Source: an uncultured Verrucomicrobiae bacterium
GTDB taxonomy: Bacteria; Chlamydiota; Chlamydiia; Chlamydiales; JAFEGQ01
DNA: 64,000 nucleotides
Assembly (NCBI GenBank): GCA_963739345.1
Contig: CAVUAA010000002.1
Location: 397,378-461,377, forward strand
Direction of reading: 5' to 3'
Shown: piece after piece, positions 39,054 to 43,380 of the stretch
How positions within the stretch are numbered: the first letter of the stretch is position 1
How the letters are laid out: each line of letters opens with the position of its first letter
The notes under the pieces: generated by a model
Database searches by the model: none
Told to the model about the DNA's origin: nothing
What the model saw: the letters and a program-made list of their open reading frames with translations, nothing else
Translations under genes and position numbers: made by a program

Positions 39054-40373
39054 ATGTACAACCGAAAAGAGACCATCGCTGCGATCTGCACGCCGCCAGG
39101 AGACGGGGGCGTTGCCATCATCCGCCTCTCAGGGCCGGCGGCGACTCAAATTGCTAATAAAATCTTTTCTGGAGATGTCGCCTCCTACAAGAGTCACACG
39201 GTCACCTACGGCCGGATGGTGGTGGGGGAGGAGACGATCGATGATGGCCTCTGTCTTGTGATGCGGGATGAGCGCTCCTACACGGGAGAAGAGGTAATCG
39301 AGCTGCAGTGTCACGGCGGCGGGCTGGTGAGCCGGCGAGTGCTGGAGGCTGCGCTGGCAGCCGGCGCACGCGCAGCGCTACCGGGCGAGTTTACCTTCCG
39401 CGCTTTCATGAATGGGAAGCTTGACTTAGCGCAAGCGGAGGCGGTGCAGGAGGTGATTGGGGCGACGAGCGAGCGGGCGGTCGATGCAGCAGCTGATCAA
39501 TTGCAAGGAAGACTCTCGCGTAAGATCAGCGCGTTTCAGAAGGAGCTTACTGAAGTTGCCGCGATTCTCGAGGCGTGGGTTGACTTCCCCGAAGAGGGAA
39601 TTGAGTTTGCGACGCTCGAAGAGCTGCTCACCCGACTAAGTGGCGCGCGGGAAAGGATGCAGAAGCTCCTAGACACCTTCCACGATGGGCGGGTGTTGAG
39701 TGAGGGAATTGCCCTCTGTCTCGTCGGCGCGCCGAACGTGGGCAAGTCTTCTCTGATGAACGCGCTGCTCGAAAAAGAGCGGGCGATTGTCACTCACATT
39801 GCGGGGACGACGCGCGACCTGCTCGAAGATCGGATGCGGCTTAACGGGTTGCCGGTCCGGCTGATTGATACGGCGGGGATCCGGGAGACGACCGAGGTGA
39901 TTGAGCAGGAGGGGATTCGCCGCTCCCGTCAGGCGATGGAGGAGGCCGACCTCGTCTTGCATGTCCGCGACGCCACCCGCCCCGATGAGGACACCGAGAT
40001 TGTCGTAAGTAACACCCTTGTCATCTGGAACAAGATCGATTTGGTCGACGAGGTGCCAGAGGGGATCGCGGTCTCTGCAAAGAATCGAACGGGACTTGAT
40101 GCCTTGCGAGAAAAAATCGACGCGGTGATTTGGGAAAATGGTCCCCCCGCCCGAGATCAGGTGTTGATCACAAGTGTCCGCCACAAAGAGGCGCTAGCCG
40201 CTGCCATCGCTGCCTGCGACAAGACAATCGAGGGCTTAAGGAGTGAGATCTCCCCTGAGTTTCTTTGTCTTGATCTGCGCGAGGCGCTGCAACAACTGGG
40301 AAAAATCATCGGAGCTGATGTGACAGAGGACATTCTCTCCGCCATCTTCTCTAAATTTTGTATTGGAAAATGA
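39054..40373 (+). CDS. mnmE: tRNA modification GTPase MnmE
   Basis: GAPNVGKSS, GTTRD, DTAG, NKID, FCIGK. Confidence 0.97.
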   Translation: MYNRKETIAAICTPPGDGGVAIIRLSGPAATQIANKIFSGDVASYKSHTVTYGRMVVGEETIDDGLCLVMRDERSYTGEEVIELQCHGGGLVSRRVLEAALAAGARAALPGEFTFRAFMNGKLDLAQAEAVQEVIGATSERAVDAAADQLQGRLSRKISAFQKELTEVAAILEAWVDFPEEGIEFATLEELLTRLSGARERMQKLLDTFHDGRVLSEGIALCLVGAPNVGKSSLMNALLEKERAIVTHIAGTTRDLLEDRMRLNGLPVRLIDTAGIRETTEVIEQEGIRRSRQAMEEADLVLHVRDATRPDEDTEIVVSNTLVIWNKIDLVDEVPEGIAVSAKNRTGLDALREKIDAVIWENGPPARDQVLITSVRHKEALAAAIAACDKTIEGLRSEISPEFLCLDLREALQQLGKIIGADVTEDILSAIFSKFCIGK

Positions 40374-40972
40374 AGCCAGAAGAGATCCAAAAAATCCTCG
40401 ATGAGCTCTATCCCGATCCACCCATTCCGCTCCAGCACGATGATGAGTACACCTTGTTAATTGCCGTCCTCCTCTCGGCGCAGTGCACGGATGCGCGGGT
40501 GAATCTGGTCACGCCCGCTCTTTTCGCCCGTGCACGGACGCCTGAAGAGATGATCAAACTCGATCCGAAAGAGATCGAGGAGATCATCCGCACCTGCGGT
40601 CTCGCCCCCTCGAAGAGTCGCGCGATTCACGAGCTCTCCCGCCTCATCCTTGAGCGGCACGGTGGCCATGTTCCCGATTCTTTTGCCGCCCTCGAAGCAC
40701 TCCCCGGTGTAGGCCATAAGACAGCTTCGGTCGTCATGTCACAAGCGTTTGGCCAGCCCGCCTTTCCGGTCGACACTCATATTCATCGATGTGCCAAGCG
40801 GTGGGGTTTGTCCTCTGGAAAAAATGTGGTGCAGACCGAGCGCGACCTGAAGCGGGCTTTTCCCAAAGCCTCGTGGAACAAGCTTCATCTCCAAATCATC
40901 TATTTCGCTAGGGAATATTGTCCTGCACGCGCCCATGACCTAAGTCACTGTCCTATATGCGCTTGCACATGA
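40370..40972 (+). CDS. nth: Endonuclease III
   Basis: LLSAQCTD, LPGVGHKTA HhH, VDTH, C-terminal Cys cluster. Confidence 0.96.
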   Translation: MKPEEIQKILDELYPDPPIPLQHDDEYTLLIAVLLSAQCTDARVNLVTPALFARARTPEEMIKLDPKEIEEIIRTCGLAPSKSRAIHELSRLILERHGGHVPDSFAALEALPGVGHKTASVVMSQAFGQPAFPVDTHIHRCAKRWGLSSGKNVVQTERDLKRAFPKASWNKLHLQIIYFAREYCPARAHDLSHCPICACT

Positions 40973-41035
40973 CCATTATTCACGCCATGGCAAAATGGTC
41001 TTGACCATTTTGCCATGGCGTGAATAATGGTCATG
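40968..41035. repeat. Perfect 33-bp inverted repeat with 2-nt loop upstream of ATPase D
   Basis: CATGACCATTATTCACGCCATGGCAAAATGGTC-TT-exact reverse complement. Confidence 0.95.
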
Positions 41036-41045
41036 GGAGGGCGAG

Positions 41046-42257
41046 ATGAAAAGATTCTATTTAAAGGTGATCAAAGAGCATTTTCAGGAAAATCGGCAGA
41101 TGCTGTTTCTGATGGGCCCGAGACAGGTGGGAAAGACAACCCTGGCCGAGCTGCTGATCGAAGGGGATGGGCCCTCCTTCTATTTCAACTACGATCGCGA
41201 AATCGATCGGATGCTCATCTTGGAAGGATCCAATGCGATCGCTGAGCGAGCGGGGTTGCTCGGAGCCGTTGAGATTCCTCCTCTCGTTGTGTTCGATGAG
41301 CTACACAAGCGTCGCCTGTGGACTATATTCCTCAAAGGGCTGTTCGATTCCTACCCAAACAAGCTCCACATTCTTGTGATGGGGAGCGCCCGTCTCAATG
41401 TCTATCAGCGGGGCGGAGATAGCATGATGGGGCGCTACTTCTACTATAGAATTCATCCTCTATCGGTGGGGGAGTTGGTCGATTCAGAAACGATTCCGGA
41501 GTCCTATCGACCAATGCCAACCCAAATTGATGAGGCGCAGTGGGAGGCGCTGTGGCGCTTTGGGGGTTTCCCTGATCCTTTTCTAAAGGCTGATTCTCGT
41601 TTCTATAACCGTTGGAAGCGGATGCGAGCGCAGCAGATCTTCCAAGAAGATCTGCGAGACATTAGTCGAGTTGAGCACATCAGCCAGATTGAGCACTTGG
41701 CTGAGCTTATACGGCAGCAAGTGGGACAGGGGACCAGCTATACCAGCCTGTCGCGACAAATTTTGGCAGCGATCGGAAGTGTGAGGCGGTGGCTCAACCT
41801 CCTCACCTCAATCTACTATTGCTTTCCAGTCCGTCCGTGGTCAAAAAATCTGGCCCGATCTCTTAGGAAGGAGCCCAAGTACTACTTGTGGGACTGGTCG
41901 CTCTGTGATGACGAAGGGGCGCGAGCCGAAAACATGGTTGCCTCTCATCTCTATAAAACCGTTCACTTTTGGACTGACCACGGAATGGGCCAGTTCGAGC
42001 TCTACTACCTTCGCGACAAGGAAAAGCGTGAGGTCGACTTCTTAGTTGCTAAGGACGGCGAACCATGGATGTTGGTTGAGGTGAAGCGGAGCAATAGCCG
42101 CAGCATATCGCCAGCGCTCAAGTATTATGCTGAGCGACTTCCCGCGAAACATGTCTTTCAGGTGGTCTTCGACCTGCCATACGTCGACGTCGATTGTTTC
42201 AGTTATGATCATCCGATCATCGTTCCGGCGCGGACGTTTTTGTCGCAGTTGGTGTGA
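41046..42257 (+). CDS. AAA_14/DUF4143-type ATPase with C-terminal PD-(D/E)XK-like nuclease, gene D
   Basis: GPRQVGKT, VVFDEL, GGFP, PKYYLWD, EVDF...VEVK. Confidence 0.88.
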   Translation: MKRFYLKVIKEHFQENRQMLFLMGPRQVGKTTLAELLIEGDGPSFYFNYDREIDRMLILEGSNAIAERAGLLGAVEIPPLVVFDELHKRRLWTIFLKGLFDSYPNKLHILVMGSARLNVYQRGGDSMMGRYFYYRIHPLSVGELVDSETIPESYRPMPTQIDEAQWEALWRFGGFPDPFLKADSRFYNRWKRMRAQQIFQEDLRDISRVEHISQIEHLAELIRQQVGQGTSYTSLSRQILAAIGSVRRWLNLLTSIYYCFPVRPWSKNLARSLRKEPKYYLWDWSLCDDEGARAENMVASHLYKTVHFWTDHGMGQFELYYLRDKEKREVDFLVAKDGEPWMLVEVKRSNSRSISPALKYYAERLPAKHVFQVVFDLPYVDVDCFSYDHPIIVPARTFLSQLV

Positions 42258-42304
42258 CCATTCTGACACGGGGTGAAATATAGTCATATGCAAGTGATTG
42301 AGGG

Positions 42305-42811
42305 TTAGTCTTTGAGACCGGTCACTTGGCCTTGCACTTCGGCGCGATCAGTTTTTTTCAGGATGCCGTTGCCGGAGAGAAATTTGACGTTGCCCTTGAT
42401 GAGGGCGGCGCCGGAGAGGAGGAGGGTTTGCTCCTCTTTGGGGTTGGAGGTGGGTTGGATGATGAGGTCTCCTTTGATGACGCCGCCGTCGAGTTCAACG
42501 TAGTTGGAGGTGACGGTGACGTTCCGCTCGAAGGTGGAGTGAGCGGCGAGGAGGGATCCGGTGAGAGTGGAGTTGCGGAGGATGCGGCAGGTCGCCAGGT
42601 GGGTGGCGCCGGTCCACTTGATGGAGCCGAAGGTGCATTCGCTGGCAGAGAGAGAGCCGCTGCCGGTCAGGTTGCCTGGGATGTTGACGCTCTTGAGGGT
42701 GAGTATTCCTGAGTGCTCGAGGGAGTCGACGGTGGTGTTGGTGAGGGTTTTCATCCCCGTGGAGGCGCTGAGGGAGATGGTGAAGAGCAATAGGAAGAGA
42801 ATTTTTTTCAT
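42305..42811 (-). CDS. Secreted beta-helix/bactofilin-like hypothetical protein
   Basis: Signal peptide; repeated short beta motifs (IKGDL, IKGNV, VQGQV). Confidence 0.6.
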   Translation of the reverse strand: MKKILFLLLFTISLSASTGMKTLTNTTVDSLEHSGILTLKSVNIPGNLTGSGSLSASECTFGSIKWTGATHLATCRILRNSTLTGSLLAAHSTFERNVTVTSNYVELDGGVIKGDLIIQPTSNPKEEQTLLLSGAALIKGNVKFLSGNGILKKTDRAEVQGQVTGLKD

Positions 42812-43380
42812 AGGACTTTGAGTGCCTTTGTGATGAGGGTAGAGAGGTCGAGGTCGTTGGTTTCCTTGAGCACTTTTTGGACAGCGGTTTGCGCTTTGAC
42901 TTGGGAGTAGCCGAGGTTGAGGAGGGCGCCCATGGCGTCGCGGACGGTGGGAGCGAGGTCGGAAGGACGTTCGGTGAGGGTGGGGAGCTTGTCGCGCAGT
43001 TCGATGATGAGCCGCTCGGCGGTTTTTTTCCCGATGCCGGGCGCCTTGGTAATGAGGGCGGGGTTGTTGTGAGCGACAGCCTCTTGGAGGGCGCGGGGGG
43101 AGAGATGGCCGAGGAGGCCGAGGGCGGTCTTTGGACCAACGCCGGAGACGGCGCAGAGGGTTTCAAAGAGGTCGCGATCGGAGGTGGTGAGAAAGCCGTA
43201 GAGCGATTGCTCGGTCTCCCGGACAATGAGGGTGGTGTGGAGGAGGACCTCTTCGCCAGGAGGGGGGAGTTGGGAGGAGGCGCTAAGGGGGATGTTGAGT
43301 TTGTATCCCACGCCGCCGGCGTCGATGATGGCGTGGAGGGGGCCGGAGGAGGCGAGAGTGCCGCGGATAAATGCGTACAT
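42808..43380 (-). CDS. ruvA: Holliday junction branch migration protein RuvA
   Basis: GVGY, LYGF, VSGVGPKTA, PGIGKKTAER motifs. Confidence 0.97.
   Translation of the reverse strand: MYAFIRGTLASSGPLHAIIDAGGVGYKLNIPLSASSQLPPPGEEVLLHTTLIVRETEQSLYGFLTTSDRDLFETLCAVSGVGPKTALGLLGHLSPRALQEAVAHNNPALITKAPGIGKKTAERLIIELRDKLPTLTERPSDLAPTVRDAMGALLNLGYSQVKAQTAVQKVLKETNDLDLSTLITKALKVL

Follow-up and report, generated by a model that had tools for sequence, protein, structure and literature searches.

PDC-S01, in which an ATPase is fused to a PD-(D/E)XK domain, has been ranked fourth by frequency among the defence candidates of prokaryotes, in a survey most of whose candidates await validation (PMC12988326), and it is treated there and in a second survey as a very abundant, unvalidated single-gene candidate (PMC12988326, PMC13356809). 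DUF4143, one of the two Pfam domains of the family, has been listed in the PD-(D/E)XK superfamily with function unknown (PMC3424549). The family is thus among the commonest candidate defence genes, yet the relevant passages of the surveys give neither a mechanism nor a target for it (PMC12988326, PMC13356809). The present analysis concerns one such gene and the 68-bp palindrome that precedes it, both found in a 64,000-nucleotide stretch of DNA from an uncultured bacterium of the order Chlamydiales (contig CAVUAA010000002.1; hereafter the window), which corresponds to C2:397378-461377 of a source genome (G000) of 1,721,679 bases in 2 contigs. The palindrome is built as two 30-bp units of the form GAC-N24-GTC that lie 2 nt apart, and we consider it likely that it is a promoter-embedded self-operator, i.e., a cis-regulatory block of the ATPase-nuclease gene that is read by the product of that same gene.

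The gene is located at 41046-42257 on the + strand and encodes a protein of 403 amino acids, which was characterized by Pfam, PADLOC and an AlphaFold2 model. The protein contains AAA_14 (PF13173; E 4e-21, 75.8 bits, against a Pfam gathering cut-off of 27) and DUF4143 (PF13635; E 1.2e-26, 93.8 bits, cut-off 28.1). Seven PDC-S01 models of PADLOC matched it, four of them at E 3.2e-45 to 5.4e-23, and the best model, PDLC04790 (E 3.2e-45), placed residues 2-375 on profile positions 13-396 of 422. Judged by its sequence, the protein is a member of PDC-S01 (AAA_14 + DUF4143, COG1373); it resembles the described candidate in matching the models and both Pfam domains and in being a single gene without partners, and differs from it in that the gene is accompanied by a conserved pair of 30-bp units, which are set within the predicted promoter and covary with the winged helix of the product. 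Residues invariant in 40 sequences were K30 of Walker A and D84 and E85 of Walker B, plus E295, D331, E345 and K347; the latter four fit the PD-(D/E)XK pattern, and the motif suggests a catalytic role for them. The AlphaFold2 model, for which 40 orthologs were used (pLDDT 90.3, pTM 0.91), comprises an AAA+ module (~1-160), a helical lid, a winged helix (~232-281) and a PD-(D/E)XK domain (~290-403). The modelled winged helix consists of a helix-turn-helix and a beta wing, its third or recognition helix spanning residues 243-255, while residues 290-374 form an alpha-beta-beta-beta-alpha-beta core. With the N-terminal three quarters of the model, Foldseek returned STAND NTPases, Orc1/Cdc6 bound to origin DNA (2qby_A), RuvB, clamp loaders and SSO1545; a sequence search of solved structures gave a marginal AAA+ match only (5ubv, E 0.58).

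The arrangement of the locus can be compared with other known systems. The controller (C) proteins of type II restriction-modification systems and their C-boxes represent promoter-overlapping, autoregulatory operators of mobile defence genes. The block studied here is similar in that dyad sites lie over the -35 and -10 elements of the putative regulator's own gene, in that the site and the helix predicted to read it change together, and in that the block moves with the gene. However, the candidate regulator is a domain of a 403-residue ATPase-nuclease and not a small, separate helix-turn-helix protein, and the units are 30 bp long with a 32-bp period and invariant GAC/GTC ends; moreover, the predicted regulation may be one of activation or of repression. 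In archaea, the Orc1/Cdc6 gene sits next to the origin. The ATPase shares with Orc1/Cdc6 (PDB 2qby) the AAA+ module, the lid and the winged helix (2qby_A was ranked fifth by Foldseek, E 1.2e-06, TM 0.34/0.36), as well as the presence of repeated inverted recognition boxes beside the protein's own gene; at 14% identity, this is a resemblance in fold and not membership, and the present locus differs in the lack of an AT-rich unwinding region between the units, in the C-terminal nuclease domain and in its multiple copies per genome. Lastly, an integron cassette is also a single gene bracketed by imperfect palindromic repeats. Its attC, however, is situated 3' in a cassette that usually lacks a promoter, and depends on the integron integrase, whereas the conserved palindrome of our locus is 5' and appears to form the promoter, the 3' copy is absent at the 30 other loci examined for it, and no integrase family recurs near the 41 loci compared below.

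The paired units and the predicted promoter of the ATPase-nuclease gene

An earlier note on this DNA, made from its letters alone, had described a perfect 33-bp inverted repeat upstream of the ATPase gene, and a repeat search indeed recovered it: the arms, at 40968-41000 and 41003-41035, are 33 nt each, complementary at 33/33 positions and separated by a 2-nt spacer. The left arm contains unit 1 (U1; 40971-41000, + strand) and the right arm unit 2 (U2; 41003-41032, + strand), each with the GAC-N24-GTC frame and each the exact reverse complement of the other. The arms had also been called quasi-palindromic, which is true of their ends (GACCATT...AATGGTC) and not of their whole length, where the self-complementarity is 18/30 per 30-nt unit. 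Matching at 30/30 positions as inverted copies and at 18/30 as direct copies, in addition to the 18/30 within each unit, the pair represents the extreme inverted case of its family. When both strands of the source genome were scanned with mismatches allowed, the only sites with at most 10 mismatches to the arm were the two arms themselves and one copy downstream of the gene (unit 3 or U3, treated below), so that the search for additional genomic copies, proposed earlier as a check, yielded none at this threshold; the next best sites had 11 mismatches (22/33), one on each strand of C1. The two-unit pattern itself occurred once in the source genome, at C2:438348 (window position 40971), and the same pattern search thus offered no second two-unit site on which to base a regulon.

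A sigma-70-like promoter, TTGACC-16 nt-AATAAT (41001-41028, + strand; 10/12 match), was the best of the region 40300-42900. Its -35 hexamer is made up of the TT spacer and the GAC(C) of U2, and its -10 hexamer falls within U2; in other words, the promoter predicted for the ATPase gene overlaps a dyad-symmetric site, with both hexamers covered by the spacer and U2. A Shine-Dalgarno-like run, GGGAGG, follows at ~41036-41041, and U2 and the ATG are 13 nt apart.

Conservation of this arrangement was examined at 41 full-length orthologous loci (45-58% identity) obtained from 300 genomes of the order, where a block was scored if two GAC-N24-GTC units lay directly before the start codon and no more than one of their 12 anchor bases was missing. 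Such a block was found at 31 of the 41 AAA_14/DUF4143 orthologs, with the exact 30-2-30 geometry in 29 of the 31, and these 29 were aligned; several of the other 10 loci, judged by eye and unscored, have one unit or a variant. In the aligned loci, a promoter-like register was seen for U2 in 17/29 and for U1 in 7/29, and in 8 loci the ATG is situated 5-8 nt past the -10 hexamer, as expected of leaderless mRNAs. A family match at E <= 1e-60 was present in 95 of the 300 genomes, often in multiple copies. Across the 41 loci, no gene family recurred in the flanks (~1.5 kb on each side) and there was no common flanking DNA, two pairs of non-independent loci (overlapping, or from close relatives) being exempted from the comparison. 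Three genomes of the same family have the order trmE-nth-ruvA with 0.6-1.1 kb of unrelated small genes between nth and ruvA, and lack the ATPase gene there. These results support the view that gene and palindrome behave as a self-contained one-gene unit of ~1.29 kb, in which the palindrome is tied to the gene rather than to the site. A separate search for related loci with the protein gave only loci of 46-47% identity, three in genome contigs and two in metagenome contigs, none of them near enough to date U3 or to reveal an empty site.

The arrangement was also seen outside this subfamily. Another 26 loci, comprising 20 from the group of 35-44% identity along with 6 others, were inspected by eye; most of them have related dyad pairs at the same position, some with differing anchor bases, and 4 of the 6 distant paralogs in the source genome had, again by eye, their own and different palindromes near a promoter-like site. 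By this visual evidence, the rule of a dyad at the promoter reaches beyond the subfamily of 45-58% identity. Before the start codon of a truncated family member (L036, G029:C6), the 30-bp unit occurs three times in tandem, at a period of 32 bp, instead of twice, from which it follows that the number of units is variable in the family.

The invariant columns of the 29-locus alignment are the GAC and GTC ends, while the interiors vary by lineage and yet remain symmetric. Pairing was observed in 82.2% of the cells between U1 and U2 and in 81.0% of those within units, compared to 31-41% in slid controls, and the covariation score of the units was reached by none of 500 shuffles. This suggests that the symmetry of the units is under selection, which lends support to their role as an operator. 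As to the mutual orientation of the units, 11 of the 29 loci have interiors that agree more closely when inverted and 6 have interiors that agree more closely when direct, the two being tied in the remaining 12; a long U1:U2 hairpin is therefore no universal requirement. The U1:U2 symmetry of the orthologs extends to 17-28 of 30 positions only; the perfect 33/33 symmetry of the window locus probably arose not long ago, when one unit was corrected with the other as its template.

The interiors of the units were then related to the parts of the protein. Distances between elements correlated with distances between winged helices (rho 0.459, Mantel p 0.001), in contrast to those of the AAA+ part (rho 0.078, p 0.21) and of the nuclease part (0.137, p 0.10). 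When the remainder of the protein was controlled for, a partial Mantel correlation of 0.414 (p 0.001) was left, the reverse partial being 0.033. A sliding window of 25 residues peaked at residues 241-265 (rho 0.51), and the highest summed mutual information with the element was that of residues 248, 244, 242 and 243. By eye, ACGAT interiors were seen to pair with 'S-x-D-T-I-R-R-W' (D244), AACAT with P244, and CGGAG/CGAAC with K244. This covariation points to the gene's own recognition helix as the reader of the units, although it falls short of proof.

We propose that U2 itself is the promoter and that U1 and U2 constitute the cis block of the gene that follows. In binding the units, the gene product would use the recognition helix (residues ~243-255) of its winged-helix domain, as is suggested by the covariation with its own helix and by the private nature of the site. 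Since the units cover both promoter hexamers, the bound protein would mask -35 and -10 and, most likely, repress its own transcription. Block and gene would be inherited and relocated together, as ~1.29 kb. U3, at the stop codon, would be a later direct copy of U2 that arose in the window lineage only; it might be the decaying remains of a duplication event at the locus, or else an additional site for the protein, rather than the second attachment site of a cassette. Of the 'operators at both ends' suggested in the earlier note, the operator half is supported for the upstream pair, by the conserved block, the promoter match and the helix covariation, and is possible but tentative for the downstream copy. 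In the passages matched by a full-text search, no published description of a cis element, a DNA target or autoregulation was found for DUF4143, COG1373 or PDC-S01. A conserved promoter site that covaries with a helix would supply the PDC-S01 family with a concrete candidate DNA ligand, and a self-operator would suggest both a control logic, in which a nuclease probably represses its own synthesis, and a simple code for specificity in residues 242-248. For the purpose of annotation, striking perfect palindromes before PDC-S01 genes would then be regarded as regulatory blocks, and not as transposon ends or assembly errors.

Several observations weigh against this interpretation. Each unit of the window locus, taken alone, is a poor palindrome (18/30), unlike the units of most orthologs, and the register of U2 fails the promoter criteria in 12 of the 29 aligned loci. 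The Mantel tests rest on related sequences, and the winged helix is possibly just the most variable part of the protein. Among interior mismatches, G:T exceeds A:C both between U1 and U2 (32 vs 15) and within units (20 vs 7); such an excess is predicted for a single-stranded (+ strand) hairpin and not for a purely double-stranded protein site, and it is a weak hint at single-strand pairing. It is also to be noted that U3 has kept the six anchor bases along with the TGAC/GTCA flanks, so that a function for U3 is not to be dismissed, and that long perfect palindromes are common at gene 3' ends in the source genome, where the one studied here also directly follows a gene.

The unit at the 3' end of the gene

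U3 (42256-42285, + strand) is a diverged direct copy of U2 in which the GAC-N24-GTC frame is kept; it overlaps the ATPase stop codon and takes up the greater part of the 47 nt that separate this stop codon from the convergent gene. It had been noticed earlier as a degenerate direct copy of the arm at 42255-42287, and this copy does agree at 26/33 positions with 41002-41034, i.e., the right arm shifted by one base. It is not a product of chance, because the next best site of the genome has as many as 11 mismatches. The remark that the arms supply stop codons was likewise accurate at both ends: the nth frame (40358-40972) terminates at the TGA 40970-40972 within the left arm, and the TGA of the ATPase gene (42255-42257) forms the first three bases of the downstream copy, each stop codon being the TGA of a 'TGAC' with which a unit starts.

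A search for 3' units was made at 31 loci with good units, against a null built from the units of other loci. U3 matched U2 at 23/30 positions, where the null maximum was 20, and the window locus was the only one of the 31 to exceed its null; the other 30 loci scored 14-19, with null maxima of 16-20. An ortholog in G003 (L005) had been a candidate for a 3' unit and was rejected, its 15 matches facing a null maximum of 17. Based on this comparison of loci, the bracketing of the gene by unit copies is a peculiarity of the window locus. Positions 42288-42420, which follow U3, showed no similarity to the 5' region of the gene (p 0.40-0.62) that would betray a gene remnant. Flanking direct repeats above the null were absent from the loci tested except for one, L011 (G009:C112), where an exact 34-nt repeat is found upstream of the units (~1317-1350 of the oriented locus) and again 42-75 nt past the stop, with a third, inverted copy of the 34 nt located 1 kb upstream. 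Behind the downstream 34-mer of L011 come a decayed unit and 81 nt that repeat the 5' end of the gene at 91% identity; judging from these remains, the whole block has been partially duplicated in tandem. For U3, an origin as the decaying product of a local duplication has close to an even chance, a role as a working auxiliary site is possible if doubtful, and its being the true end of an element is improbable.

Alternative explanations of the locus

The earlier note had seen in the locus a single-gene mobile cassette with attachment-like repeats. One part of this idea has survived, in that the gene with its palindrome is portable and is missing from the nth-ruvA interval in 3/3 same-family genomes. 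A mobile one-gene cassette of ~1.3 kb, with U1 (inverted) and/or U2 (direct) and U3 as its ends and with the ATPase-nuclease as its own mobility enzyme, would also be in keeping with the patchy occurrence of the gene (95/300 genomes), multi-copy and always in new contexts, with the inverted and direct relations of U1/U3 and U2/U3 around it, with the invariance of D331, E345 and K347, and with an insertion that is base-exact at two stop codons. The other part, namely attachment sites at both ends, found no support, considering that the 3' copy exists at 1/31 loci only, that no recombinase travels with the gene, and that the upstream pair appears to be a promoter and operator. Flanking direct repeats are at the null level save for the tandem partial duplication of L011, and a gene-family comparison, which did not include a Pfam scan of the flanks, detected no integrase or transposase family common to the ~1.5-kb flanks of independent loci among the 41. 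An empty site carrying one copy after nth was proposed as a check; when U1, U2 and U3 were aligned on both strands with ~100 nt around the nth stop of five relatives (56-73% identical in Nth), none rose above chance, the one resemblance, to the C-terminal nth codons of G029 under U1(-) and U2(+), having p ~0.02 among 30 tests, which is the chance level. Of five listed public sequencing runs, none on record as RNA, four (X1-X4) gave contigs that, at a depth of 2-5 and with the palindrome uncovered, contained no joint across the gene and no circle junction; parts of nth, of the ATPase gene and of the downstream gene are represented in them at 85-99% likeness, and the four joints listed in them are all within nth, with short sides of 22-32 nt. 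A contig of run X1 covers 42132-42278, and the public contigs represent a related strain in which the gene and the greater part of U3 are present. Finally, the GC3 of the ATPase gene, 0.62, falls inside the 0.61-0.80 of its neighbours; a foreign composition was thereby ruled out, 0.62 being a resident-gene value, and the gene is not a recent arrival. We therefore regard such a cassette as very unlikely to be the right explanation. It is very unlikely, too, that PDC-S01 genes are selfish one-gene elements and not (or not only) defence genes, their ATPase-nuclease recognising GAC-N24-GTC marks of its own DNA. U1 and U3 would in that case be imperfect inverted ends (26/33), of which the right one would have been lost at the 30 other loci, and the protein would move or copy its own gene in the manner of a fused TnsC/TnsA-type ATPase-nuclease or a homing enzyme; if true, this would account for the patchy, multi-copy and context-free distribution.

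Two further alternatives leave the gene in place and concern the role of its units. U3 may be a working distal operator, such that protein bound at U1-U2 and U3 bridges 1.25 kb by looping, or blocks polymerases passing to or from the convergent gene; we rate this as possible but tentative. AAA+ proteins of the fold class of the ATPase oligomerise, which was counted in its favour, as were the exact GAC-N24-GTC frame of U3 with its T before GAC and A after GTC and its 23/30 agreement, the lack of any other such site in the source genome, and the variable unit count of the family, with three upstream units at one locus. However, a 3' unit above the null at none of the 30 other loci means that it is not a design of the family, and most of the seven changes in U3 fall in the interior, the very part that covaries with the recognition helix. 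Such a distal site would tighten the control of the ATPase gene and is, in this same tentative sense, compatible with U1-U2 as the self-operator. The palindrome could instead act as a nucleic-acid hairpin, either a terminator or 3' stabiliser of nth or a REP- or MITE-like element, its position before the ATPase gene being secondary. There is indeed a wealth of perfect palindromes in the source genome (77 distinct ones, mostly abutting gene 3' ends), this one starts inside the nth stop codon, and the excess of interior G:T over A:C has been mentioned. The sequence of the palindrome is, however, unique in the genome, unlike those of the repeated families; its architecture accompanies the ATPase gene in 31/41 unrelated contexts and covaries with a helix of the protein; in 6/29 loci, the direct orientation gives a better match of the interiors than the inverted one; and there is no T-run after the palindrome, which was also absent from the terminator scan. 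A hairpin as the primary role is, accordingly, given little credence, although the palindrome, beginning as it does within the stop codon of nth, may serve to terminate nth transcripts as well. The remaining explanation is an artefact of assembly or fold-back, against which the earlier note had cautioned. Positions 40996-41082 are not covered by the contigs of the four public runs and hence stand without independent read support. Nevertheless, the palindrome is internal to its contig, with unique sequence on either side, the two-unit architecture is the norm of the ATPase gene family, being equally present at 31/41 orthologous genes, and dozens of other palindromes that are long and perfect occur in the source genome, where several belong to repeated families; an artefact is extremely improbable.

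Neighbouring genes and other palindromes

In the order of the genes, trmE and nth lie upstream of the ATPase gene, and the 168-residue gene, ruvA and ruvC downstream on the opposite strand. The nth gene (endonuclease III; 40358-40972, + strand) was identified by Pfam HhH-GPD (1.3e-24) and HHH (1.5e-06), and its stop codon overlaps the start of U1. In G029, a second, partial nth (139217-139531, L020) was found ~2.1 kb downstream of the full nth (C2:136505-137092, L018); it comprises residues 97-201, is also 56% identical to the query, and is separated from the full copy by a 448-codon frame without a recognised match. The convergent gene (42305-42811, - strand), an open reading frame for a hypothetical protein of 168 amino acids with a signal-peptide-like N-terminus, forms the right-hand bound of the unit; it has a GC3 of 0.80, belongs to no Pfam family and gave weak matches only, in 1/5 relatives. 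A terminator-like hairpin with a T-run is situated at 42221-42246, within the final 12 codons of the ATPase gene; in the region there are 2 such sites, compared with 2.9 expected from shuffles, and this one is probably due to chance.

The 77 distinct perfect palindromes of the source genome were collected with arms of at least 14 nt and loops of at most 8 nt; their arms measure 14-42 nt and their loops 0-8 nt, and a 300-kb shuffle gave none. They occupy convergent (21), divergent (12) and co-directional (39) gaps, and 5 are inside open reading frames. Several belong to families, the largest of which number about a dozen copies, e.g., those with arms ending ...GTACCGATTGGGGCC, ...ACGTCCAGTTTGGTGCC and GAGTTGTCATGTTTTCATGTCTGACACG; examples of palindromes are C1:293318-293401, C1:424303-424384, C1:1031811-1031885 and C1:781539-781610. 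The sole member of the 77 within the window is 40968-41035, and it was rejected as a candidate for a genome-wide palindromic repeat, given that only its own locus matches and that its architecture follows the ATPase family. Palindromes centred on GGGGCC or GGTGCC, at C1:376208-376248, C1:1128350-1128386 and C2:94913-94953, lie within ~200 nt of 3 of the 6 distant AAA_14/DUF4143 paralogs, two of them upstream and one at the 3' end; with ~40 copies in 1.7 Mb, this proximity looks, by impression, to be in excess of chance. An expansion of paralogs was also apparent in genomes of 1.7-1.9 Mb (e.g., G002, G014, G088 and G126), which gave 21-24 first-look candidates, G002 having 17 matches to the ATPase family at E <= 0.001.

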